Virus record (IMG/VR): IMGVR_UViG_3300042317_001691
Span: 14,020-78,019 of that record
Length of the DNA: 64,000 nucleotides
DNA from: a virus
Lineage: Duplodnaviria; Caudoviricetes
Reading direction: 5' to 3' (one strand)
Shown here in pieces: positions 13,518 to 61,987 of the stretch. Numbering within the stretch: position 1 is the first letter of the stretch; the number at the start of each line of letters is the position of its first letter. The translations under genes and the position numbers were made by a program. The notes beneath the pieces are model-generated. The model was not told the DNA's origin, ran no database searches, and saw only the letters and a program-made list of their open reading frames with translations.

Positions 13518-14390
13518 TTAAAAGTTCTTAATGATCTCGTTAAGATCAAAAACGTCTGCAGAACTATATGGGTAATCATGAACTCTATGTCCAGAAAAAT
13601 CATGTTCTTCAATATACCCTTCAATAGAAACTTGCTTCAGTACCTTTAATTTTGAGTCTGGATTTACGTTTTTATTATTTTTATATCCAAAAACTACGGG
13701 TTTATTTGTAATCCAACAGACGGTGCTTGTTTGGTTAAATGCGGCAGCGGCGTGCTGCATAAAACTATCAATTCCTAGTCTAGCTTGCGAGCTTTGAATT
13801 AATCCAAACAAATCCCTAAATGGTGCATGTATGTGTTGTACGTTTTGAAGCTTAATCTGATCTTCTCTACAAAATTGCAAAATATGATATTTTTGACCTA
13901 ATACGTTAACGATGGCTTGAGCTTGATGTGGGGGAATGTCGCGATTCCAACTATATTGAACGTCCTTGCTGCCTCCGCCAAAAGGCTGAAAGATTAAAGT
14001 TGGTTTACCAGTTGGAGATTGAAATCTTGTTTTATTGATCTCTACTGGATTTAAATAAAGTTCTGGCTTTGGACCATCGTATTTAATGCCCAAAACTTCG
14101 CACCAAGCTTCAGTTAAATGCATATTTTTCTTTAAGTATCCTTTGGCGAGATAAGGTTCATCGCACATAAAGATTGTATCGCCTCCTTTTACAAAATCTT
14201 CGTAAAAATAAGGGGCCATTCCAACCCTATAAAATCTATGCACATTAGGATTTCCAATAAAAACTTCTGGATATCCAGAAACAACAATTAAATTATAATC
14301 TGGAAAAGATTTTTTTATAGCTCTGCATACTGCGGTGGCCATAATAGATTTTCCAATTCCGCCATTGATTTGAAAAATAATGTTCTTCAT
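13518..14390 (-). CDS. Glycosyltransferase family 9-like (heptosyltransferase fold), full length
   Basis: GGIGKSIMATAVCRAIKKSFPD N-terminal half; LIFQPFGG...; ARLGIDSFMQHAAAAF C-terminal half. Confidence 0.8.
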   Translation of the reverse strand: MKNIIFQINGGIGKSIMATAVCRAIKKSFPDYNLIVVSGYPEVFIGNPNVHRFYRVGMAPYFYEDFVKGGDTIFMCDEPYLAKGYLKKNMHLTEAWCEVLGIKYDGPKPELYLNPVEINKTRFQSPTGKPTLIFQPFGGGSKDVQYSWNRDIPPHQAQAIVNVLGQKYHILQFCREDQIKLQNVQHIHAPFRDLFGLIQSSQARLGIDSFMQHAAAAFNQTSTVCWITNKPVVFGYKNNKNVNPDSKLKVLKQVSIEGYIEEHDFSGHRVHDYPYSSADVFDLNEIIKNF

Positions 14391-37903: not shown

Positions 37904-39559
37904 TTATGCTTCACAGCTTTTGCAGTCTAAGATTGATCTAACTAACTCTTGTGCTGGGTTCGCACTACGTTGGTAATAAAGAGACTTAATTCCTTGTTCC
38001 CAAGCAAATATCATCAATTCATTAACCTCTTTTGCCTTTGTTTCTGGAGGAATCATTATGTTTAAACTTTGACCTTGATCAATGTACTTTTGACGTTGAG
38101 AGGCTTGAATTATAATCTCTTTTTGAGAAATCTCTCCAAATGTCTTGAACACGTCTTTCTCATCTTGAGATAAAAAGTTTAAATGTTGCACGCTGCCGCC
38201 CTTGATTAAGACAGATTTCCAAACCTCATCTGTATCTTGATTTTTTGCTTTTAAAAGCCTTTTTAGATACGGGTTTTTATAAGTAAATTTACCTTTAGCG
38301 AGGTCTTTGACAAAATAGTTGCTATTCAAGGGTTCGATTGAAGGAGAAACCTGACCAAGAATAAATGAACTTGATGTGGTTGGAGCAACTGCCATTGTTG
38401 TAGAATTTCTTTTACCAGTTCCTTTCATAAGTTCTGGCTCGCCAAATAGTTCAGCTAATTTTTCCGAGGCTTTATGAGATTTTTCTTTGATATGTTTCCA
38501 AATCTCAACATTTAACATTTTTGCTTGAAATGATTCAAATCCAATCATCTTTAATTGTAGAAGTGAATGCCAACCAAGTACACCAAGCCCCAATGCTCTT
38601 TGATTTTTTGCAAATTTATTTGCCGCTTCCATATAAGGCATTTCATCAGTCTTTTGGATGAATTCGGTCATAACGGCATCCAAGAAATAAATCATGACTT
38701 CAACCGCATCAGTCTCTTTCCATTCGTCCCACTTCTCCAAGTTCATTGAAGATAAGTTACAAACAAAAGATTCATCTTCTGAATTGCTCAAGAAAATTTC
38801 TGAACACAAATTGCTATTATTTATTTTTAGCCCCTTTTTCTTGTAAACTTCTGGAGCTTGATTGTTTACATTATCAGTAAAAAAGATATATGGATAGCCG
38901 CTTTCAAATCTCTTCTTCAAGACTTCTCCCCATATTTTTCTTTTTTCTTTGTTACCCTCTATCATTGATTTCATCCATTCGTCAGACACGCAAACTCCGA
39001 TTGAAATGTCTTGGATTTCGTTTCCTTCTGATTTAATCTTTAAAAATTCTTCAATATCTGGATGATCGATTGGAAGGTAGGCAGCAAAAGATCCACGACG
39101 TACATTACCTTGGCTAACAACATTCATGAGTTTGTCGTAAAGCTCCATGAAGTGAACAGAGCCAGTAGACTCACCTCCAGCAGAAATTGGCATACCTCTC
39201 CCCCTTACATCTCCAAAATAAGCGGATGTGCCGCCTCCAGATTTAGTCATCATTCCTACTTCGGCAAGCTTTCCAAGAATGCCTTCCATTGTATCAGGAA
39301 TGTAAGAACCAAAGCAGGAAATTGGAAGACCCCTATTTCTTCCGAAGTTGGCCCAGATAGGAGAACTTAGTGAGTAAAAGCCCTTCTGCATATAAAGGCA
39401 GAACTTTTCAAAGAAATTTGGAATTTTGTTTAAAAGCTTATCTAAAGCCGTGTTTGCAATGTCTTCAATTCTTTTCTCTGGAGTTTCCCCCTTCAATAAA
39501 TAACCTCTCTCCAGAAATGTACGAGAGTCTTTATTGAGCCAATAAAAATTATTTTCCAT
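37904..39559 (-). CDS. nrdA: Ribonucleotide reductase class Ia alpha subunit, short form without ATP cone (probable start 39559)
   Basis: PISCF, KSGGGTS, SNLCSEI, CNLSS, RALGLGVLG, APTTSSS, SLYY, C-terminal CKSC. Confidence 0.95.
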   Translation of the reverse strand: MENNFYWLNKDSRTFLERGYLLKGETPEKRIEDIANTALDKLLNKIPNFFEKFCLYMQKGFYSLSSPIWANFGRNRGLPISCFGSYIPDTMEGILGKLAEVGMMTKSGGGTSAYFGDVRGRGMPISAGGESTGSVHFMELYDKLMNVVSQGNVRRGSFAAYLPIDHPDIEEFLKIKSEGNEIQDISIGVCVSDEWMKSMIEGNKEKRKIWGEVLKKRFESGYPYIFFTDNVNNQAPEVYKKKGLKINNSNLCSEIFLSNSEDESFVCNLSSMNLEKWDEWKETDAVEVMIYFLDAVMTEFIQKTDEMPYMEAANKFAKNQRALGLGVLGWHSLLQLKMIGFESFQAKMLNVEIWKHIKEKSHKASEKLAELFGEPELMKGTGKRNSTTMAVAPTTSSSFILGQVSPSIEPLNSNYFVKDLAKGKFTYKNPYLKRLLKAKNQDTDEVWKSVLIKGGSVQHLNFLSQDEKDVFKTFGEISQKEIIIQASQRQKYIDQGQSLNIMIPPETKAKEVNELMIFAWEQGIKSLYYQRSANPAQELVRSILDCKSCEA

Positions 39560-39560
39560 A

Positions 39561-40532
39561 TTAAAAAAGATCTTCTTCTCCAAACGACTGATTTTTCTTT
39601 GAGTACTCAACTGGCTTCGAATGAAAGAAGTCAGTCATATTGTTGCCAAGTAATTCCTCTTCAAACCAAGAGGTCTTAGAAAGCAAATCAGAATTGATTA
39701 CAAAAACTTTTTGGAAGCCGATTTGAACTAATGATTCATTAATTCTATTCTTAACGAACTCTTTTAAAATGTCCGCACTTAGATTTTCTTCTTGAATACC
39801 ATTTACCATCCAATCAATTATTTTAGACTCTGCCTCAAAAGCCTCTTTAGCCTCAGAGATTATTTTTCCCTCAAGCTCTTCATCAAATAAATAGGGATAT
39901 TCTTCTTTAATCGTATTGATTATTTTGATCCCGACCAAAGCATGAAGATTTTCTTCGTTCCTTGTGTACTTGACCTGTTGGTCCGTGTCTTTTAATACGT
40001 TCTTAAATCTACTGAACCAGTTAATTATATAAAACTGAGAGAACAAAGAAACATTCTCTACAAACAGAGTGAATAGCGTAATTGCATACAAATATTGTTT
40101 TTTGCTGTCTTTATAGAAACGATGAGTATATTTCTTTAAATACTTTACTCGCCCTTGAATCCATTCGAGCTTTAAATTCTCTTCGAAAACGTCTTCTAGA
40201 CCAAGAACAGAGATTAATCTTTCATACGCATTGTTGTGGATCACCTCCACATTTGCCATAACGTACCCTAAATCAGAAAGGGATGGATGAGGAAGGTTTT
40301 CCCCTAATTTTGCCCAGAAAGTTTTTACGGCAACCTCAATTTGACCAATTGCAGAAAGCGTTCTGATGACAATTTCTTTTTCCTTATCAGAGAGAGAAAC
40401 TTTAAATTGTTGAATGTCTGACTTAAAGGAAAACTCCTTATCTGTCCAAAATCCTTCATGCATTGCACTTATAAACTTTTCCGTCCAAGGATACTTGTTC
40501 GGCTTCCTAGAGATTTGTTCCTCGAAAATCAT
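39561..40532 (-). CDS. nrdB: Ribonucleotide reductase class Ia beta subunit (probable start 40532)
   Basis: FWTDKE, EVIHNNAY, LFVENVSLFSQF, RNEENLH, DFF. Confidence 0.95.
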   Translation of the reverse strand: MIFEEQISRKPNKYPWTEKFISAMHEGFWTDKEFSFKSDIQQFKVSLSDKEKEIVIRTLSAIGQIEVAVKTFWAKLGENLPHPSLSDLGYVMANVEVIHNNAYERLISVLGLEDVFEENLKLEWIQGRVKYLKKYTHRFYKDSKKQYLYAITLFTLFVENVSLFSQFYIINWFSRFKNVLKDTDQQVKYTRNEENLHALVGIKIINTIKEEYPYLFDEELEGKIISEAKEAFEAESKIIDWMVNGIQEENLSADILKEFVKNRINESLVQIGFQKVFVINSDLLSKTSWFEEELLGNNMTDFFHSKPVEYSKKNQSFGEEDLF

Positions 40533-51559: not shown

Positions 51560-54500
51560 TTATCTCAACATGCCTCCTAATCTTTTTTCTTCTTTTATTA
51601 CTCCCATTACAACTTCTTTAATTCTTCTGGCCATTTCTCGATTTTGACGGTCTTGATTTTCGGAAGAATCTTCTTCTTCTTTTTTAGATTTTCCGCTAGA
51701 GTCTGAATTCACAGTTATATTTATGGTTCCGACTCCACTGACTTTTTCCACTAATTCCTCTAATTTTGATTCTATTCTTGAGGTAGATTCATCTGAAGCG
51801 CCACCTGATCCTCCTCCACCAGAATTCATTTTTTGCAAATTATTGTATCCAATATTTTGAGCAGCTTGCTTTGATATAACAAATTCTCCACCATTTAACA
51901 TAGCTGGGACATTATCTCCCATGCCATTGCCTGGAATATATCCACCAGCAGCCCTGCGATTTCCCAACATTTTTTGTAAATACAAGTCTTTCTCTTTGGG
52001 AGTAAGACTCGTTACGGATTGATTGGGATTAAAAATATCTTTAGCATCGCCTCCACCAAATCCAAGATCGCCCATATTCATTCTCGAAGAGCTATAAGAT
52101 TCAGAAGGTTTAAACAAATTCATCGGATTCAATTTAGGCGCACTAAAACTCGAACTTGGGGACTGCCAACCATAAGTAACAGGAGTCCCTAACTGATCGT
52201 AGCCTAATCTACCAAAATTTTGAGCCATTCCATATCTACTGTTAAAAACGTCCTCGCTCATATTAACGTAGGAACTGCTTTTTGAATCCCACATTGCAAG
52301 ACCTTCTGTATTATTTAGTCCAGCTTGACCAGCACCTATTACAGAAAAATCTTTATACCCAGAAGAACTAAACATATTAGCTAGCCCACCTCTTGTTTCA
52401 CCCCCCATTGTTCCACCCGTAAATCCACCCATTAATTTTTCACCAAATGTGGCGGTTCCACCTTCTGCGGCTGCAGCTTGAGCTGTTGAACTCCATCCTT
52501 GTCCAAAACTATTTGCGGCGGCTCCAAGTGCGGCCATGCCTACAGACATTCCTATCTGAACAAGCATTCCTTTCATTTGTGCTTTTCTTTGAGCTTCTTG
52601 TTGTTTTTTAAATTCTTCAATTCTTTTTCTTGCTTCTTCTTCTATATTGAATTTTTCTTTTGTTGCTCCTATTCCTTCCAGATATAAATCAAAAGCTTTT
52701 TGTTTGGATTCAAGGTATTGTTGATTCATTGAGTTTTCTTGATTTCTCAAGCCAAAAAGAGTAAAATTGCCACTTCCTGCGCTTAAATTAATACCTTGCG
52801 GTCCAATTTTATCGAATTGAGTTCCTGTTGTTTGTTGAGTTGCGTATGCTAATAAATTTTTCTGACCCATTATTGCACCAGCTCCTCTTTCTCCAGGCAT
52901 AAAGAATCCACCTTCACCCGTTTGTTGGTTCTTGGCGTAGAAATCGCTCTGAGCTTTCATTAGAGCCATTTGCTTATCTTCTTCTTTCCCCTTATATGAA
53001 GATAAACCTATTACTTTTCCACTCTCGTCAAAAGACATGTCCCCAACTCTTGTTTGGCCGTATGGGGTATATTTTTTTGGATTAACCACCAAATCCTTTA
53101 GATCTGCTTCTTGAAAACCAACCATTCCGCCATTGGCGAATCCTTGAATTTTTCCAGAGTTTAATCTATCAAGAAAGCTTTTGCCATATTTTGAGGCGGC
53201 CTTTTTATTTATAACATATTCTCCACCCATTAACATTGCAGGGACATCATCTTTTGTCCCAGAACCGCCTACAATTGGTCCACCACTTGCACGTTCAACA
53301 TATTTCATTGATTGACCGCTAAGATCAAATGCGCCACCAAGTAAACCTCTAGTCAATTTATCTGCCATGTTACCCATTAATGCATCATTAATCCTTTGCA
53401 AGAACGATGTGGCCGCGCCAAGTAAGGCGTCTTTAACCGACTTAGTGCCACCAGAAATATCCTTCATTGCCTGAAGCATTGAATCTCTAAAGGCCATCGG
53501 TATATCTTTTCCAAGTTTTGTTTCAAATTGATTGATATTGGTATCTAATTCACTATAATAAGATTCAAAACCTGCAGCCATTCCACCGCCTCTATAATAT
53601 CTTTGCTTTTCTGCAGTTTTAAGTGCTTTTTCTTTTTCTCTGTCTGCAGCTTCTTTTTCCTTGGGAATTGCTCCAGGTACAATAAGAGATTCAGCTCTAT
53701 TTTTTGCTAATGTAGTTCTCGTTTGTTGTAGTTTGGTCTCTAATTCAGTTATTTTTTTATCTATTTCGGCAATCTGATTCTTATTATCATTCTCCTCTTC
53801 TGGAGAAACGGGTTGTTCCAAGATGCTTTTTTGATCTTTTAATTTTAATAAATCCGCTGCAATATTTTTTGAATCTTGTTCACGTAAAATTCTATCAATT
53901 TCACTTGAATTTGATTCGCCAGTTTCAATTGGGCTAGGCTTTCCAGAAAGTTCATTAGCAGCTCCAGTTACAATTCGTTTAAATTCTTTCGCTGCCGAAA
54001 CTACCGTATCTTCAAATCCTTTTGATTGTAATTCCGTGGCTTCTTGTATAACCTTTAAATACTCTTCTGGAGTTTTTGCTTCGGCTGCCCTTCTTTGTAA
54101 TTCTATGTCTTGTGGCGCTATTCTTTGAACTTCATTGAAAACATTTCTTCTAGTTTCTAATGCGGCTTGAGCATTCTTTGTTTGAATGTCTTGCAACCTA
54201 TCTGTATAAGTATTTTGCGCTCTTTGGACAGCAAGTTCATACTCATTGTCTCTTCCAGCCTTGTATGTCAAACTAGAGATTTCTAATTCTGCATCCCTTA
54301 TTTCTCGTATTGCAGAAAGTCTTTGCTGTTGGATCTGTAAACCTTTTTGCTGTTTATCTAAGTTGGAAGAGATTATGTCTCTTTCTGCTTGTAGATAGAA
54401 ATTTTGTTGTTTTGCTACGGCGGCATTTAATGTAGCTTGAGCGTTATCCCTTAGTCTTGCTTTGGATTGCCTTTCGGCAAGTTCTACTTGCAAACTAAAA

Positions 54501-57500
54501 AGTTTGTATATTCCTTTGAGAACTTCTTCTTGCGCTCCGAGAGTTTGAAGTTTATTTTCTTGATCTATTAAATCTTCTTTATTCAGCTCTAAAGTTCTAT
54601 CTAATATTTCAACTCCATACTCAAGTTCATTTTTCTCTAATATTAAATTTTCAATTCTATCTTGTATTTGTTTTGCAATCTCTTCTTGCTTACCCTTTAC
54701 TGGATCTAAAGCCCTTAATAAACCTGCTATTGCAGTTTTTTGAGCCTCAATTCCTTCAGCTTCTTGTACCTTTCTATAAGTTCCTCTAATTTCATTTGCT
54801 TGAGGTTCAGTTAAAGAACTCGCTCCAATTTGTAAAAATTTATTTATTCTTTCTTCGCCAACTCCTGCTGCAATATTTTGTATTTCTCCCTCCAATTTTC
54901 TTCTTTCTTCGAGAGCTTTTATTTCTAAATCTATTTGTACTTTCCTCGCTTCAGAAGTTGACAGCAACTCTTTTTCAATAGATAAAGAGTTTTCTCTTGC
55001 AGTTGGGATGGAGAATTCGAGTTGTTTAATTTGCTGTCTTATTCCTAATTCTTTTTTCAATAATTCAGATTCAATTAACAAAGCTTCTTCTCTTAGTGAA
55101 GCTGCGTATTGAACTATATTTGCTTCTCCAGCGAGGGTTTTTATATATTCTTGAAATAGTTTATATTTTCTATCTAAATTTACTCCTTCAACTTCTTGTC
55201 CATTTAGAATTGTGTCTTCAAGATCTTTTTGTTTTTGCTTTAATTCAGCAATGTCCTTTTCCACTTCTAATTTTCGCTTATCAGTTTCCAATTTAATTGC
55301 TCCAAAACCTTTGTCATCACCACTTAATCTCCTCTCTAAAAATGCTATTTTTTCTTTTACATTTTGCAATCTAAAATTAAAAGCTTCCTTCGGTGAAGTT
55401 TTTTGTTGGAACGCAAGAAATTCAGCAGTATTTTCTGGCCTAATACCAAATTGTTTTTCAAGTTTATCGATACTAACTTTCTGTTGAGAAAGTGGAACTC
55501 TTTTTTTTATTTCTTTTGAAGCTTCTTCGATATCTCTAACAAAATTAGCAATTGTAAAATTAACCCCTTCTTTGATTTCATCTGGTCCTGCAATATAGTT
55601 CGGCCCCTTTTCTTCTCTTATTTTTTGTTGAATAATTGGAATTAATTGATTTCCCAAAGCTCGCGTTAAATCCCTATTTCCACTGTTGCTCAATCCAGTT
55701 TTTCCTAAAGCGTCTGTAAGTTGTTTTTCATCTTCACTACTAAAAAAAGTAGAAAATCCGCTTCTATTAAAAAAACCTCTAAATCCAGCCCCCGAAACAT
55801 TTCCAGATTCAGAAATAGATTCTAGAATTTTTTTCTGTTGATTGTTTAAAGTTACGCCATATTTTTGAGTAGCTTCATCGAGCACGCTCATTGCTTTTTC
55901 AGTTTCTGAAACCGTTCCATTCAGAACTTGAAAAATTTTATCTGCAGCGTCTAATCCTTCAAAAGCTAAGAAAGCATAAGGTAATACCTTTAAAGCTTGT
56001 CCAGCGATTGCTGCAACACCTCCTTTTTCCCTTAAAGCCGCTCCTACGCTTTCCAAAGGACCAGCTTCAGCTTCTCTTGCAGCAGCATATGCTTGACCAG
56101 CTTTTGTTTCTTCAAATCTTTTGCCTTCATTAAATATATTATCAATTAAATCTTTTGATTCTTGTAGTGAATAAACTGCAGTACCTAAACCACTAATTGC
56201 TTCTCCAACAACTTTTGTACTTTCTCCAAATTTACTTAATACACCAGAAACAAATGATAATGCCGCTTGCCATTTAAATATATTAAATGTTGATTGTTGG
56301 ATTGATTTTATTTCATCATTTTTAGCATCAACTACTTTTCCAGATGCATCAGCTTCCGCTGCTTTACTTTCATTATTTTGATTTTGTGGATTTGGTGCTG
56401 GTAAACCTTCGACTCTAGCAAGTAATCTATCTTCAATATCTTTAGTTGTTGTAGACAAAATCCTTGCAGCATTTTCAATTGGACGAGCTAAGTCTTCGCC
56501 TATTTTATTGAATCTTTCCTCTAATGATTTAAAAATTATTTCAATCTTTTCTGGTGAAATTCCATCACCATCAGCAAAATTTGGAATCTTACCGTTCGGT
56601 TCGTCGCGTTTATTTATAACGGCTAAACCGTCTGGGTTTTGCCTATTAATTAATCTATTGTCTTTAACTACTGAAATTGCAGAAAGCGGAAGACCCGATT
56701 CAATCTTTTCTCTTGAGATTGCATCCATCAAAGCTCCACTTGCATAGTTTGGAATATATCCAGAATAAGCACTGGAAGAACCTCTTTCACGCTCTCGCAA
56801 ATAAGCTTGTCTTCTTTCCGATCTTTTTTTTGCTGCTCCTTTTAGATTTCTTTCGGGATTTGGAGCATCTAGTGCAGCTTTTATGGTTTTTATGACTTCT
56901 ATTGCATCAATCCCTTCTGGCATGTCAAAAATACTTTGAATTGCTTGATTCGCTAACTGTTCTACAATAGGATTTTTTACGGATGTTTTTATAAAATCCT
57001 TTAATCTTTTAATTATTCCATCTCCTTCGCCGACAACTCCATCTCCATCAAAATCTTCAGTGGGGTTCGCAAAATTAGGAATTCTTAAATTTGAATCTGC
57101 TTTTAATCTTTTTGAAGCTGGATCATATTTGACGCTCGACATCCAAGGCTGAAGTCCCGTTGGTACGCCGCCAGAAGAACTAAATTGTTGTACCAGAGCT
57201 TTATACTCTTCACTTCTGCCATAATTCCAACCTTTCCAAGTTGAATAAGCTTTATAATCACCTTGTGTTATTTGACTTATGAAAGTTTTAAGAATTTGTC
57301 GCCTTGCGAGTTTTTGTTTTTCTTGTTCTTCTAATTGTTTCTTTTCTGCCGCCTTGCGAAGTCCAACGCTCGAAACTCCCTTTGGAAATGCCTTAGAGGA
57401 GAATGGCATTAAATAGCTAAGATTTTTTTCATTCAATTCAGACGCATCTAGCTGAACGCCTCTTAGCTCTTCGTCTTGAGAAGTAAATTTAGCTTGGAAT

Positions 57501-60500
57501 CCAACTAATTCTGGATCATATTTTTTTACGCCTTCAATTGCAGCATTTTTTAATTTTAATGTATTTTCCCTAACTCTTGAAGTAATCTTCCAGAGATCTG
57601 GATTATCTTTACGGAGGGAAGACGGATAAATTTGTTCTTTTTCATAAACTTTAGCAATTGCTGCTAATTTGACCTCTTCCCAAACATCGTTTAATCCTTT
57701 AGCTCTCCAAAATCTAGAAAATAGTTTTCCTAAATTGCCGTATTGCAGATTTTTAAATTTTCCTTCAACATCTCCCTCTAAAATATCATTTGGCTGAACA
57801 TTTAAAACTGAAGCTCCAAAAAAACCTCCGTTTACTTCGCCTGTAGTAGCGCCTTGTGAACTAGCTCTTAGAACAAAGCGTTTTAAATTCTTTACGGCAT
57901 CGGGTTCAGAGCCTTCAGTAAAAAATGTATTATTTCCTAAAATAGAAGCAACAATTGCGTTCTCATCTAAGACTGGATTTCTTCGCGAATCAAAACTTCC
58001 AACCACAGTGCCAGTGAATCCTGTTCCTCTGATTTCATCTAGAGTTGATTCCAAAGGTCTATTTGCTTGTAAAGCATAACCGATACTGCTTCCATATCTT
58101 GTGCCAAAACCTTTTAAGTTAGAAGTTTTTGCAAAATTAGGAATATAACCTCTTAAAGCTGAACTTGCTGGATTGAAATAGCCTTGAGTATCAAACATTG
58201 TATGTTTGCCGCCCAATCCTCCAACCAATTCATTTAGTGCTGCAACTTGTGGACTTTTATCTAATTGTTTAAATATGTAATTGTCTACTTCCCTGTCTGT
58301 AATATTCTTTTTCGAAGAGAAAAACTCGTTTGTTTTTTCAAGCAAGAAATTTTGCATGATATCATTGACTTTGAAATTTTGCGCGTAAACATCGTCAATG
58401 CCAATTGAATTAGGTCCGTATATTTTTTTATATTCTGAAACGACTCCCCTAACTCCAGCCTGAGCCATTACTTCGGATAACAAGTATGCAAAGTTTGCTT
58501 TTAGTTGTTGATTTTTAAAATTAGCTTGTGCAAATTCATCTACGCCAGAATCGGTTACCACTTCTCTTTCGAATCCAGCTAGCAATCCATTTTTGGTTAA
58601 AGTTTTTCCTACGTTTGTAAATGAAATTGCATTTTTCTTAAACAAAGTTGGATTTGCATTTTCAAAATCTTTGATGGCTTTATTTACATCGTATTCTTTT
58701 TGAATCTTTTCCCCGCCAGGTTTGTAAAATATTTTTTGACCAAAACCTTGTCCAGATTTTGGAGCTAAGAATTTTCCGCTTTGACCACCGCCAAGCTCAT
58801 TAAAGTCTGGATCGGAATAGAGCATTCCTGCTCCAGATCCAGTTAGTTCTGAGAAATTTGGAATGAAACCAGAGGCTGCTGAAGTGACCAATAAACCATT
58901 AACTTGAAAGTTATCAGTAGCCGTAGTTAACAATTTGCCTAAATCATTATCTCTTCCATAATTTTCAAAAATTGCTCTACGAAACTTATCTTCAACACTT
59001 GAATTTGAATAGCCTCCACTTTTAACCTCTAAAAAATTTAAAGAAGATCCATTTTTTTTAACACCATCCACATCTGAAGATCCATCTATTTTAAAACCAT
59101 CTATAGCTGAAGATCCTTTATATTTTAAAGAAGAATTATCTTTATAATCTTTTGATTCTTTTAATTGTTTCAAAATTCTATTTTCGTAATCAATTGGACT
59201 TTCATTTTCATTTAATTTAGGAATTTTTATTTTTTCAATATTGGGATTTACGCTAACTGAATCTAGAGGAATTAACTTTTTATCTGAAGCTAATGATTTT
59301 TTTAAATTATATTTTATTCTTGGATAACGAGCTAAAGATTCCGCTGTTTCTGCGGAAAAATTAGGAATATATCCACTAGCCGCAGATTTAGCGCCGCCAT
59401 AATCAGCAAGAAATCTTTCTCTTAAATTTCCACCTTTAAGTAATTCATTAATTGTTTTTCGCGTTAAGTCTTGTACTAAATCTTTTTTTGTAGCTTTAAC
59501 TTCTACGTAATTAAAATCTTTTTCTGGCAGACCGTATTCTTTTGCGATCTTTGATTTTAATCCATAAATATCAAAAGAACTTCTTTCATCGGAGCCACCA
59601 GAAGCAGTAAATTGCCCCCAATTGTCATCCAAGAAATCCATGTTTGCAGCTTTCAACATTATTTCAAAAAAGCCACCTGCAGTTTGATCATTTATGAAAT
59701 CAAATTTCTGCCCTTCTTTTAATGCATAATCCATTGCATCTGTGGGCTTTATTTTCAAATAGTCTAACTCTTGTTTTATAAATTCTCCAATTTTTGGAGA
59801 TAAGGTTGCGTTCGCCCTTGCCTTGAAGAGATTTTTGATATCTTCTTCTTTTGCTTTTATAGCATTGAGATTTTCATTTTCTCTTCTATAAACATTTCCG
59901 ACTGGAATATTATCAACTCCAAAGGCTCCATACTTTTGAAAAATACTTAAAAGAGTGGGGTCGCTTTTTACAGCTTTTTCTAAATTTTCTCTTTTAAATC
60001 TTGCTCTAATTAAATCTTGATCGCCGCCTATAGTTAATCCAGCGATGCTATATTTTCCTGCATCTAATACTAATTCTGGAAGACCAGTTTGATTTTGGGC
60101 TGGATTTGCGAAATTTGGAATAAATCCTCTTGCTGCGGATCTGGGGCGATAATTGGGAATGATTGCGTCTCCACCAGTTCCAGCAAAATTTGGAATCCTT
60201 CTTTCATTGCTATTATAGACCATCGTTCCGCGCTTACCACCACCCATCGGAAAATTATTATCAACAATAATTCTTGAGCCTGCTGGAGCATTTTTCTTTT
60301 CCTGCATCACTGCACTACCAATAGGCATATATCCACCAGCAGCTTTCTTAACTTCTTTAACGCCTTCTGGAGAAGAACGAATTCCACCCTCATACAAAAC
60401 AGGAGCAATTGTCTTGCTTATGGAAGACATTTTTTCTAAAAATGCGGCCTGTTCTCTGTATATGCCTAAAATATATTCTGCTTGTTTAGCCTTGTTTCCC

Positions 60501-61987
60501 TCTAAAGAAAGAATTGTTGCTTGAACATCTTGATTTTTTGTCAAAGCTGCAAAGATGTCTCTCTCTAAAGTTGCTTGTTCTTTTTTTGCGCTGTTTACTC
60601 CAAGCTGAGTTTGAATACTATCTGATAAAAATTTACCGAAATTAGTAAGAAGTTTTAATCCGACTCCTGCGGCCAAAAGTAGACCTGGACCAGATAAGAC
60701 ATTTCCAATTCCAGCTACGATACCTTGAGCAAGTTTGTTTCCTATCGTTTCTCCTTCGTCGCCACCAGTTAAGGCTTTATTAATTGAACCTACGGCAGAA
60801 TCTAAAGCACCTAAAATATTTTTTAAATTACCAGAAAGACCAATCTTACCAATATTGCTCGCCAATTCAGAACTGGACAAAACTAATCTATCAAAAGTTG
60901 CCGAAGTTGTTCGGCCCAACTGCTCGACTTTTCCAAATGCTTGATTTGTTGCTGTTTGAGATTCAGATAAAGATCTAGCAAAAACTCCATTTGCATCAGC
61001 GACATCTTTTAAAACAGCAGATAATTTATCAATTTGAAAACCGCCGCCGATTTTAATTAAAACACTTTTTCTGGTGGCGTCATCAAGGTATTGTATCTCA
61101 GAAGCTAATTTTCTAATAATAGTTGTAGCGGGAAGTAAATTTCCCTCTACATCATTAACTGCTATTCCTAAACTTTTTAAAAGATCAAGATTTTCTCTGC
61201 CTTGTACTCTTGTGAAAATTGTTTTTAAGGCGTTACCGATAACGGCTCCACCTCTAGCTGTTTTTTCTTGAAGTGTTGTGATTAATGCGGTTAATTCATC
61301 AAAAGAAACTCCAGCTTCTTGAGCTACCGAAGCCGAACGAGTTATACCTTCAATTAAATCTTTTGAACTTACTGCAAATTTTGTATCGACGGCAGCTAAT
61401 TTATTTACTACCTTTTCGTAATCAAGTCCAACATCATTAAAAGAACTAACTGCTGCAGTTAAACCTCTTACAGATTCAGCGGCATCTAAACCAGTTGTTC
61501 TGGTTAAAACAAGTGCCGCTTGAGCCCTTTTCAGAGACTCTTCCATTCCAGCACCTTGACGAGAAAATTCTAATGCTGCATTTGCGGCATCTTTAAATGA
61601 TGTTCCAGTTAATTTTGCGACATTGAAAATCCCTCGCCCAAGAGATTCCATATTTTTTGCCGTCTCTCCAGAAGTTACAGCTATTTCTGTAAGCGTTCTT
61701 TCTACATCAATACTAGAAACAACGATTGATTCGAAAGCTTTGGCGACTGCATTTAATACTCCAACGGAAGCTCCGAATGCGAGAACGCGAGCGTTCGCGG
61801 CCTCCATTGATTTTGTGAACTCATCTGCTTGTCCAGTAATTTTACCAAGTGGGCGACTAATAGAATCTAAACCGCGTGCGTTTATAGTTGGAACTATAGT
61901 TACCTGCGCTCTACGAGCCGCATTGGAAATATCTGCTTCCATGCGACTTGTATCCGCTGATACTGGTATTCTGATTTCGTCCGCCAT
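51560..61987 (-). CDS. Tape measure protein (3475 aa) carrying an internal cassette array of cargo domains
   Basis: TP901-type TMP core (AALEFSRQG, AVRGLTAA, DKLAAVD-like, TARGGAVIGNALKTIFTR); long coiled coils; two GGxxxGxGxxDxVPAML..GE motifs; nine IPN[FY] repeats. Confidence 0.93.
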   Translation of the reverse strand: MADEIRIPVSADTSRMEADISNAARRAQVTIVPTINARGLDSISRPLGKITGQADEFTKSMEAANARVLAFGASVGVLNAVAKAFESIVVSSIDVERTLTEIAVTSGETAKNMESLGRGIFNVAKLTGTSFKDAANAALEFSRQGAGMEESLKRAQAALVLTRTTGLDAAESVRGLTAAVSSFNDVGLDYEKVVNKLAAVDTKFAVSSKDLIEGITRSASVAQEAGVSFDELTALITTLQEKTARGGAVIGNALKTIFTRVQGRENLDLLKSLGIAVNDVEGNLLPATTIIRKLASEIQYLDDATRKSVLIKIGGGFQIDKLSAVLKDVADANGVFARSLSESQTATNQAFGKVEQLGRTTSATFDRLVLSSSELASNIGKIGLSGNLKNILGALDSAVGSINKALTGGDEGETIGNKLAQGIVAGIGNVLSGPGLLLAAGVGLKLLTNFGKFLSDSIQTQLGVNSAKKEQATLERDIFAALTKNQDVQATILSLEGNKAKQAEYILGIYREQAAFLEKMSSISKTIAPVLYEGGIRSSPEGVKEVKKAAGGYMPIGSAVMQEKKNAPAGSRIIVDNNFPMGGGKRGTMVYNSNERRIPNFAGTGGDAIIPNYRPRSAARGFIPNFANPAQNQTGLPELVLDAGKYSIAGLTIGGDQDLIRARFKRENLEKAVKSDPTLLSIFQKYGAFGVDNIPVGNVYRRENENLNAIKAKEEDIKNLFKARANATLSPKIGEFIKQELDYLKIKPTDAMDYALKEGQKFDFINDQTAGGFFEIMLKAANMDFLDDNWGQFTASGGSDERSSFDIYGLKSKIAKEYGLPEKDFNYVEVKATKKDLVQDLTRKTINELLKGGNLRERFLADYGGAKSAASGYIPNFSAETAESLARYPRIKYNLKKSLASDKKLIPLDSVSVNPNIEKIKIPKLNENESPIDYENRILKQLKESKDYKDNSSLKYKGSSAIDGFKIDGSSDVDGVKKNGSSLNFLEVKSGGYSNSSVEDKFRRAIFENYGRDNDLGKLLTTATDNFQVNGLLVTSAASGFIPNFSELTGSGAGMLYSDPDFNELGGGQSGKFLAPKSGQGFGQKIFYKPGGEKIQKEYDVNKAIKDFENANPTLFKKNAISFTNVGKTLTKNGLLAGFEREVVTDSGVDEFAQANFKNQQLKANFAYLLSEVMAQAGVRGVVSEYKKIYGPNSIGIDDVYAQNFKVNDIMQNFLLEKTNEFFSSKKNITDREVDNYIFKQLDKSPQVAALNELVGGLGGKHTMFDTQGYFNPASSALRGYIPNFAKTSNLKGFGTRYGSSIGYALQANRPLESTLDEIRGTGFTGTVVGSFDSRRNPVLDENAIVASILGNNTFFTEGSEPDAVKNLKRFVLRASSQGATTGEVNGGFFGASVLNVQPNDILEGDVEGKFKNLQYGNLGKLFSRFWRAKGLNDVWEEVKLAAIAKVYEKEQIYPSSLRKDNPDLWKITSRVRENTLKLKNAAIEGVKKYDPELVGFQAKFTSQDEELRGVQLDASELNEKNLSYLMPFSSKAFPKGVSSVGLRKAAEKKQLEEQEKQKLARRQILKTFISQITQGDYKAYSTWKGWNYGRSEEYKALVQQFSSSGGVPTGLQPWMSSVKYDPASKRLKADSNLRIPNFANPTEDFDGDGVVGEGDGIIKRLKDFIKTSVKNPIVEQLANQAIQSIFDMPEGIDAIEVIKTIKAALDAPNPERNLKGAAKKRSERRQAYLRERERGSSSAYSGYIPNYASGALMDAISREKIESGLPLSAISVVKDNRLINRQNPDGLAVINKRDEPNGKIPNFADGDGISPEKIEIIFKSLEERFNKIGEDLARPIENAARILSTTTKDIEDRLLARVEGLPAPNPQNQNNESKAAEADASGKVVDAKNDEIKSIQQSTFNIFKWQAALSFVSGVLSKFGESTKVVGEAISGLGTAVYSLQESKDLIDNIFNEGKRFEETKAGQAYAAAREAEAGPLESVGAALREKGGVAAIAGQALKVLPYAFLAFEGLDAADKIFQVLNGTVSETEKAMSVLDEATQKYGVTLNNQQKKILESISESGNVSGAGFRGFFNRSGFSTFFSSEDEKQLTDALGKTGLSNSGNRDLTRALGNQLIPIIQQKIREEKGPNYIAGPDEIKEGVNFTIANFVRDIEEASKEIKKRVPLSQQKVSIDKLEKQFGIRPENTAEFLAFQQKTSPKEAFNFRLQNVKEKIAFLERRLSGDDKGFGAIKLETDKRKLEVEKDIAELKQKQKDLEDTILNGQEVEGVNLDRKYKLFQEYIKTLAGEANIVQYAASLREEALLIESELLKKELGIRQQIKQLEFSIPTARENSLSIEKELLSTSEARKVQIDLEIKALEERRKLEGEIQNIAAGVGEERINKFLQIGASSLTEPQANEIRGTYRKVQEAEGIEAQKTAIAGLLRALDPVKGKQEEIAKQIQDRIENLILEKNELEYGVEILDRTLELNKEDLIDQENKLQTLGAQEEVLKGIYKLFSLQVELAERQSKARLRDNAQATLNAAVAKQQNFYLQAERDIISSNLDKQQKGLQIQQQRLSAIREIRDAELEISSLTYKAGRDNEYELAVQRAQNTYTDRLQDIQTKNAQAALETRRNVFNEVQRIAPQDIELQRRAAEAKTPEEYLKVIQEATELQSKGFEDTVVSAAKEFKRIVTGAANELSGKPSPIETGESNSSEIDRILREQDSKNIAADLLKLKDQKSILEQPVSPEEENDNKNQIAEIDKKITELETKLQQTRTTLAKNRAESLIVPGAIPKEKEAADREKEKALKTAEKQRYYRGGGMAAGFESYYSELDTNINQFETKLGKDIPMAFRDSMLQAMKDISGGTKSVKDALLGAATSFLQRINDALMGNMADKLTRGLLGGAFDLSGQSMKYVERASGGPIVGGSGTKDDVPAMLMGGEYVINKKAASKYGKSFLDRLNSGKIQGFANGGMVGFQEADLKDLVVNPKKYTPYGQTRVGDMSFDESGKVIGLSSYKGKEEDKQMALMKAQSDFYAKNQQTGEGGFFMPGERGAGAIMGQKNLLAYATQQTTGTQFDKIGPQGINLSAGSGNFTLFGLRNQENSMNQQYLESKQKAFDLYLEGIGATKEKFNIEEEARKRIEEFKKQQEAQRKAQMKGMLVQIGMSVGMAALGAAANSFGQGWSSTAQAAAAEGGTATFGEKLMGGFTGGTMGGETRGGLANMFSSSGYKDFSVIGAGQAGLNNTEGLAMWDSKSSSYVNMSEDVFNSRYGMAQNFGRLGYDQLGTPVTYGWQSPSSSFSAPKLNPMNLFKPSESYSSSRMNMGDLGFGGGDAKDIFNPNQSVTSLTPKEKDLYLQKMLGNRRAAGGYIPGNGMGDNVPAMLNGGEFVISKQAAQNIGYNNLQKMNSGGGGSGGASDESTSRIESKLEELVEKVSGVGTINITVNSDSSGKSKKEEEDSSENQDRQNREMARRIKEVVMGVIKEEKRLGGMLR

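Follow-up and report, generated by a model that had tools for sequence, protein, structure and literature searches.

A predicted protein-kinase-like domain inside the giant tape measure protein of an uncultured tailed phage

In a stretch of 64,000 nucleotides from an uncultured tailed phage (Caudoviricetes; IMG/VR record IMGVR_UViG_3300042317_001691, positions 14,020 to 78,019; hereafter referred to as the window), an open reading frame (ORF) of 3475 amino acids (aa), P0001, is encoded on the minus strand at 51560-61987. Judging from its sequence, this ORF is a tape measure protein (TMP), and we report that one of its domains, module 3 (aa 1047-1281, 58145-58849, minus strand), is predicted to adopt the fold of protein-kinase-like (PKL) enzymes. 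A first-pass annotation made from the window alone had placed a protein-kinase-like domain at 58160-58849, which corresponds to aa 1047-1276 of the TMP, and two AF2 models, both bilobed, together with structure searches whose top matches, both by Foldseek and by VIA, were all PKL enzymes now bear this out. Whereas the boundaries of the module, its conservation and its predicted fold are results of the computation itself, the statements on its function are graded below. On the strength of the models we regard the PKL fold as highly probable. As the best overall explanation, to which we give about even chances, we propose that module 3 is an exchangeable, minimal PKL domain of the TMP that is active and is delivered in order to modify a target early in infection.

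The first AF2 model, calculated for the module of the window with an alignment of 10 sequences, had a pLDDT of 76.5 and a pTM of 0.76, with uncertainty in the first 36 residues. The second, calculated for a 59%-identical homologue (locus L009) with trimmed ends and 13 sequences, reached a pLDDT of 80.3 and a pTM of 0.77 and resolved the β1-β2 hairpin around the glycine-rich loop. The order of the elements is the same in both models: the N-lobe consists of β1, the glycine-rich loop, β2, β3 with the candidate lysine, a long αC and three more strands ending in FEREV, and the second lobe of αD, an αE of 30 residues, a short helix or loop with D-x4-N, a short strand, three helices, another short strand and an Asp. 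In the description that we favour, the N-lobe is five-stranded and carries the GxGxSG loop, the β3 lysine and the αC helix. Both models were then compared with 48,161 PDB representatives in two runs of the structure search VIA, with 50 rows per run. PKL enzymes filled 100 of the 100 rows listed over both models, with Z values of 8.6-6.1 for the first model and of 9.3-6.8 for the second (root mean square deviation, rmsd, 3.0-4.2 Å over 118-152 of 203 residues). The argument for the fold rests on the fact that all rows belong to one superfamily and that the match at rank 50 of the second run still had a Z of 6.8, whereas values of 4-5 are usual, according to the tool, for models without a match. 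Foldseek's first 50 PDB matches were kinases as well, albeit weak ones (E 0.014 or higher, TM 0.25-0.44), and the matches in BFVD were mostly kinases of giant viruses.

Among the top VIA matches were the ABC1/UbiB-like Rv3197, ULK4, the CKM kinase, Rio2, APH(2''), Bud32, BRAF, a lanthipeptide-synthetase kinase, OspG and YabT. For the second model, the Z values were 9.3 for Rv3197, 8.3 for Rio2, 8.1 for Bud32, 8.0 for OspG, 7.5 for NleH1, 7.2 for Ark1 and 7.1 for HopBF1. Since the top matches tie within 1 Z, no PKL subfamily can be named. This qualifies the likeness to RIO and Kdo kinases that had been proposed initially: the part that stood is that of a minimal kinase ending at a linker, whereas a specific affinity to RIO or Kdo enzymes is not supported, as Rio1 (Z 7.3/7.9), Rio2 (7.1/8.3) and WaaP (6.3) lie within about 1-2 Z of ABC1, ULK4, APH, OspG and eukaryotic protein kinases, with no hidden Markov model (HMM) match.

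Direct translation places every motif of the first-pass annotation at the residue number that it had been assigned. All motifs described here lie on the minus strand. The glycine-rich loop GGGQSG (aa 1066-1071, 58775-58792), in which GxGxSG is invariant, is located between the modelled β1 and β2 of the second model, and the invariant K1085 within GQKIF (58733-58735) is, by the alignment and both models, the candidate β3 lysine. Two invariant glutamates, E1098 (58694-58696) and E1109 (58661-58663), are both on the conserved face of the modelled αC-like helix, and either of them could be the αC glutamate. The N-lobe's final strand ends in GFEREV (58559-58576; G, F, E, R and E invariant) at the position of the hinge. 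The catalytic-loop-like DVYAQN (58376-58393), with D1199 and N1204 invariant, follows the long αE-like helix and precedes a short strand. After the last strand, MFDTQG (58181-58198) contains the invariant D1266, which we propose as the equivalent of the DFG Asp based on the alignment, the model and end-of-range arithmetic in at least 12 kinase rows. The catalytic loop and this Asp are separated by a modelled three-helix insert (aa 1209-1257, 58217-58363) that shows indels among the homologues. The distance from N1204 to D1266 is 62 residues, an atypical spacing, with the three modelled helices in between, in agreement with the insert of about 60 aa that had been noted before the DFG-equivalent.

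The module is delimited on both sides by related linkers, AASGFIPNFS upstream (aa 1037-1046, 58850-58879, minus strand) and ALRGYIPNFA downstream (aa 1277-1286, 58130-58159, minus strand). The latter is the linker at which the module had been said to end, and its IPNF motif closes the module 11-16 residues past D1266. Because module 3 stops a few residues after the DFG-like Asp, it has neither an activation segment nor an αF-αI subdomain: the activation segment (DFG...APE) and αF-αI of Pkinase (PF00069) are absent, and in both models the chain forms no further helix after the last strand. At the other end, the module begins with a conserved N-terminal extension, ELTGSGAGMLYSDP (aa 1047-1060, 58808-58849, minus strand), which was modelled as disordered with a pLDDT of about 32. 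In this extension, which follows the pattern ELxGxGxGMLYxDP, 7 of 15 positions are invariant (L, G, G, G, M, Y and D); it might serve for docking as a strand, be processed there, or provide a phospho-acceptor Tyr.

Conservation was counted over 235 positions in 13 aligned sequences, of which 65 positions are invariant. These include G1066, G1068, S1070, G1071, K1085, E1098, E1109, G-F-E-R-E at 1138-1142, D1199 and Y1201, and further A1202, N1204, F-K, D1266, T1267 and G1269. The invariant fraction is 33/82 in the N-lobe, 8/16 in the catalytic loop and 5/12 in the stretch from β8 to the DFG-like motif, compared to 4/49 in the insert and 6/49 in the αD-αE region; invariance is concentrated at the predicted nucleotide site. 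Eight residues had been named from the single sequence of the window (G1066, G1068, G1071, K1085, E1098, D1199, N1204 and D1266), and all eight turned out to be invariant in the 13 sequences. If invariant positions were spread randomly, the chance of this outcome would be about 0.277^8, or approximately 3e-5. As the catalytic residues are invariant while the periphery drifts, binding of ATP and Mg2+ with transfer or hydrolysis of the γ-phosphate is the most likely activity, and we consider it somewhat more likely than not that module 3 is an active phosphotransferase or ATPase.

The equivalence of these residues to those of known kinases was derived from the aligned ranges and from textbook residue numbers, under the assumption that the ends of the alignments are ungapped. 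In the BRAF row of VIA, residues 1 to 202 of the model are aligned with residues 460 to 600 of the chain, and ungapped counting puts G5, G7 and G10 of the model on G464, G466 and G469 of BRAF, K24 on K483 and D196 on D594. The last Asp of the module likewise coincides with, or lies one or two residues away from, the DFG Asp of PKR (D432), PknB (D156), CDK2 (D145), CDK6 (D163), LCK (D382), MK2 (D207), PIM1 (D186), CaMKI (D162) and ADCK3 (D507). For Rio1 of A. fulgidus, in which D212 is this residue, the agreement is exact in the row of the first model and off by about three residues in that of the second. Since the last Asp falls at the DFG Asp, the structural alignments end where the activation segment would begin; about 50 residues of the model, corresponding to the three-helix insert, were left unaligned in the structural matches.

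A homologue search in 5.8 billion clusters, restricted to proteins of the size of TMPs, yielded 17 homologues with 50-67% identity across the full module, all of them in proteins of 2236-4015 aa and nearly all with PF10145. In an exhaustive phmmer search of 1.84 billion representatives of all lengths, eight of the nine matches were in giant TMPs and the remaining one was a fragment of 303 aa. Profile searches for stand-alone forms (124-427 aa) returned nothing but two fragments, each from a contig of about 1.1 kb, and those for other fused forms (428-2000 aa) returned none, which is weak evidence as this was a word-index search. No relative of module 3 was found in the GTDB species genomes, and thus no evidence of a prophage form, nor was there a match by tblastn in 50,697 phage records; IMG/VR and metagenome contigs added only three further loci. 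As these searches returned this group and fragments alone, module 3 is known only from inside giant TMPs of uncultured phages (contigs up to 152 kb). The phages of this clade are from freshwater, with about 30% GC and a size of about 150 kb.

Within these proteins, the location of the module is not fixed. Its start varies from about aa 1015 to 1558 among complete TMPs, and it is preceded by M2, M4 (both, like M1, M5 and M6, modules found between the linkers) or other sequence, and followed by M4, M5, M6 or other sequence. At the same time, its conservation is the highest within the TMP, with an identity of 50-67% compared to 28-51% for M1, 24-35% for M4 and 22-36% for coiled-coil regions, and an IPN[FY] motif abuts both of its ends, including the position directly before it, in most homologues. 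The variable position, the swapped neighbours, the flanking IPN[FY] motifs and the top conservation together indicate that module 3 is an autonomous and exchangeable unit under strong constraint. In one related TMP, P0016, the module is directly followed by a GNAT acetyltransferase (PF00583, 33.3 bits at a cut-off of 20.7; aa 1788-1857, L002:15362-15571), which is a second type of protein-modifying enzyme in the same cassette region.

The closest published parallel is offered by the Ser/Thr/Tyr-type kinases of polyvalent proteins, in which the C-terminal subdomain is missing altogether, the residues of the active site are retained and an insert is present, and which were found in phages of Bacteroidetes and Verrucomicrobia beside ARTs, GNATs and nucleotidyltransferases (Iyer et al. 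2017, PMC5512222). Four classes of protein-modifying enzymes occur in these injected proteins, kinases and GNATs among them, and modification of host proteins has been proposed as their role (PMC5512222). The family is represented in Pfam by PF18762 (Kinase-PolyVal), and in 11 members from Bacteroidota genomes we found the motifs GAEQ, KLND, a conserved Gln, LHDENV and FIDT; the end of the domain follows about 10 residues after the last of these. Features common to module 3 and Kinase-PolyVal are the point of truncation after the F-x-D-T or F-D-T motif, the loss of the C-terminal subdomain, the retained active-site residues and an extra insert, as well as the presence, side by side with GNATs, in a multidomain phage protein that presumably enters together with the DNA; the GNAT directly after module 3 in P0016 strengthens this parallel. 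The differences lie in the motifs and in the carrier. Where Kinase-PolyVal has GAEQ, whose Glu in the ATP loop precedes strand 2, and a Gln conserved in the N-lobe's final strand, module 3 has GxGxSGKF and AGFEREV with no conserved Glu or Gln there; where Kinase-PolyVal has LHDENV and the canonical spacing from N to D, module 3 has no conserved His before the catalytic Asp. Furthermore, the insert of module 3 is located between the catalytic loop and the DFG-like Asp, in contrast to its placement elsewhere in Kinase-PolyVal, and the carrier is a TMP, a term ('tape measure') that does not occur in the text of PMC5512222. Module 3 thus works like Kinase-PolyVal, as far as can be predicted, but is not a demonstrable member of that family. 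At the level of fold and motifs, the PKL reading is supported, and we view module 3 as a variant, orphan in sequence, of those kinases without a C-lobe that occur in injected phage proteins, with the TMP as a new carrier. As a separate observation, stand-alone PF18762 genes of about 210-237 aa were present in 13 of 301 sampled Bacteroidota genomes (L053-L068), and three of the matches are broken by a single stop codon, which is TAA in L055 and L063 and TGA in L057.

Small PKL enzymes of 160-270 aa with a reduced C-lobe and no activation loop, similar to module 3, are known from other contexts: OspG of Shigella, NleH1 of E. coli, HopBF1, the archaeal Ark1/TkArkI, Bud32 and RIO1/RIO2. The match of OspG to the second model comprised 126 of 169 residues at an rmsd of 3.0. 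These minimal kinases keep helices after the DFG motif, whereas module 3 ends there and has three helices before the DFG-like Asp. They are type III effectors or cellular ATPases without sequence similarity to module 3, which resides in a phage tail protein. OspG, NleH and HopBF1 are delivered into another cell by an injection machine. Among phages, T7 gp0.7 and the kinases of cyanophage virions are PKL kinases that act on host processes, but gp0.7 is expressed after entry, and the kinases of the cyanophages are proteins in their own right that belong to recognisable families (APH/ChoK/Rio2), as opposed to an internal TMP domain without a match to any family model. For the cyanophage kinases (S-CRM01, S-TIM5, S-CBWM1, S-CREM2), which were identified in the proteomes of virions, entry together with the DNA has been proposed (PMC10665884).

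Functional domains within tape measure proteins have precedents. Peptidoglycan hydrolase motifs are embedded in the TMPs of mycobacteriophages and other phages. These proteins have in common that a swappable functional domain sits on a tape-measure scaffold that is ejected; the domains known so far act on the cell wall or the membrane, whereas the kinase fold of module 3 implies a cytoplasmic site. The TMP-related effector Sle1 of a contractile injection system belongs to the same group (PMC13277306). Our literature search found no published description of a kinase inside a TMP.

Several results weigh against a PKL enzyme. None of the Pfam families matched any of 10 members of module 3 at E<=10, the models of the PKL clan (Pkinase, RIO1, ABC1, APH, Kdo) included, and the Pfam and PHROG scans of the TMP left module 3 without a match. 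Neither phmmer nor profile searches of the PDB sequences retrieved a kinase, the best matches being at chance level (E 0.08 or higher), and hhalign gave probabilities of 0.3% against 30 ABC1/UbiB proteins and of 0.1% against 11 Kinase-PolyVal proteins, values that say little either way given the Neff of about 2 of the query alignment. The HMM of PF18762 matched none of the 10 members and, at E<=10, nothing in a record that holds a module 3 homologue. The single VIA Z values lie in the range that the tool calls middling, and the alignments behind the models are shallow (10-13 sequences, Neff about 2). That K, E, D, N and D converge on one site is suggested by the topology of the models and the end-points of the alignments. 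Both the gap of 62 residues between the catalytic Asn and the metal-binding Asp and the absence of αF are unusual for an active kinase. If module 3 is a kinase, it would add to the PKL superfamily a family that no sequence model currently detects.

These results could be explained by a module that is no kinase at all and serves the TMP as a conserved globular spacer or packing element, the kinase-like model being an artefact of a shallow alignment and of motifs with low information. The lack of sequence-level homology to kinases, the Foldseek E-values of only 0.014 or higher, the Neff of about 2 and the span of pLDDT over the five AF2 models (57-80) are all in line with such an artefact. It would, however, have to account for two models with different first sequences sharing one topology, for VIA rows that are PKL without exception, for motif residues that were picked blind from one sequence and are all invariant and on canonical secondary-structure elements, and for the concentration of conservation on the predicted nucleotide site, and we therefore judge it very improbable. 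If the fold is accepted, the enzyme might instead transfer phosphate to small molecules, as those of the APH, choline/Kdo or WaaP type do, and modify an envelope sugar, a lipid, a metabolite or an antibiotic-like compound during entry. APH(2'') enzymes reached Z values of 8.1-8.2, and APH(3'), YihE, the corramycin phosphotransferase and, for the first model, WaaP and a macrolide phosphotransferase were within 1-2 Z of the best match; APH/ChoK-like kinases have also been reported in cyanophage virions (PMC10665884). Yet differences of less than 1 Z are ties, enzymes of the APH, Kdo and WaaP types bind their substrate via a large helical C-terminal subdomain that module 3 does not have, and the envelope side of the membrane contains no ATP. 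This assignment thus seems quite improbable to us.

A different role for the same fold would be that of a nucleotide-binding switch or ATPase, as in RIO and Bud32, or of a pseudokinase-type scaffold, which would be at work in the cell that makes the phage, for instance when the TMP folds or modifies itself or when the tail is assembled, or would offer a docking surface during ejection. ATPase-type PKL proteins are indeed among the top matches (UbiB/ABC1-like Rv3197, Rio2 and Bud32 at Z 9.3, 8.3 and 8.1), the module has no substrate-binding C-lobe, and TMPs are made in a cytoplasm rich in ATP. On the other hand, the complete and invariant phosphotransfer set, including the Asp of the catalytic base, exceeds what nucleotide binding needs, the variable position and the swapped neighbours would not be expected of an element critical for assembly, and the adjoining GNAT of P0016 fits better to a cassette of effectors. 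We consider this role unlikely.

For a module 3 that is delivered by the phage, the following sequence of events may be envisaged. The TMP would leave the lumen of the tail ahead of the DNA and carry the module along, and the module would reach the envelope or the cytoplasm of the host at infection, refold there and modify a target of the host (or of the phage) ahead of all phage gene expression. The G(Y/F)IPNF joints are candidates for cleavage sites, recombination joints or motifs of contact with the tube. Two physical constraints count against this scheme. Three folded copies of a 26-kDa domain in register exceed the tube lumen of about 4 nm, so that the domains would have to be stored in an unfolded or collapsed state and refold afterwards. 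Moreover, as there is no ATP in the periplasm, the module would have to be exposed to the cytoplasm in order to act, and such exposure is not established for TMPs in general. Our confidence that module 3 leaves the tail with the TMP, is delivered into the host and acts there is accordingly low, somewhat below an even chance. The most far-reaching version of this proposal is more doubtful still: that module 3 represents a new PKL family, detectable by structure only, in which a helical insert before the DFG-like motif replaces the C-lobe; that it is carried by the TMP, becomes free or accessible at the G(Y/F)IPNF joints, and refolds in the host cytoplasm; that it phosphorylates host proteins of defence, transcription or translation before phage expression; and that it is one cartridge in a magazine of swappable effectors which includes the GNAT in relatives.

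The assignment of the carrier as a TMP of the PF10145 type follows from several sequence matches. PF10145 (PhageMin_Tail) scored 104 bits at aa 125-315 in the Pfam scan, a dozen PHROG tape-measure families match the N-terminus with E-values down to 1e-43, and the homologues are of the same kind. The gene sits among tail genes whose order is kept in related contigs (L001-L008), and the minor tail protein downstream of it matches phrog_14. Hydrophobic peaks were seen at aa 422-448, about 1991 and about 3140, and the other strand has no ORF of at least 80 aa in the region of module 3. In the N-terminal domain of the TMP, identity to the nearest cultured phages is no more than about 26%, and they hence give no clue to the host. 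Nine IPN[FY] motifs are spread over aa 598-1805. The modules between these linkers other than module 3, i.e. M1, M2, M4, M5 and M6 (56597-60097, aa 631-1797), matched no Pfam family at E<=1; M6 (48 aa) was found in every homologue, with 48-82% identity, M2 and M4 occur in few, and the content of the cassette is shuffled between phages. The TMP also contains two copies of a repeat, GG(P/Y)I..G.G...D.VPAML.GGE(Y/F)VI.K.AA, at 53153-53311 (aa 2893-2945) and 51818-51976 (aa 3338-3390). As the second copy starts with AAGGYIPG, which is similar to the linker AxxG(Y/F)IPNF, the linkers of the cassette may derive from this repeat.

Elsewhere in the window, the large subunit of a class Ia ribonucleotide reductase is encoded at 37904-39610. 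Its closest relatives (L014-L019) are 68-81% identical, and their contigs in metagenome-assembled genomes, some of which measure 118-141 kb, are labelled Bacteriovoracaceae, Crocinitomicaceae, Flavobacteriales and even Promethearchaeota. These contigs may belong to related phages that were binned with their hosts, which would be a weak hint of a host among the Bacteroidota or Bdellovibrionota.

TMPs are seen as proteins that measure length and form channels and that contain, at most, motifs of cell-wall hydrolases. If our proposal is true, it would extend the idea of injected polyvalent effectors to the lumen of the tail and provide long-tailed phages with a route for the delivery of proteins ahead of the DNA. 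It also raises the physical question of how an enzyme domain of 26 kDa, present in three copies, would travel through a lumen of about 4 nm and refold thereafter. Since module 3 is small and has clear boundaries, the idea is directly testable.

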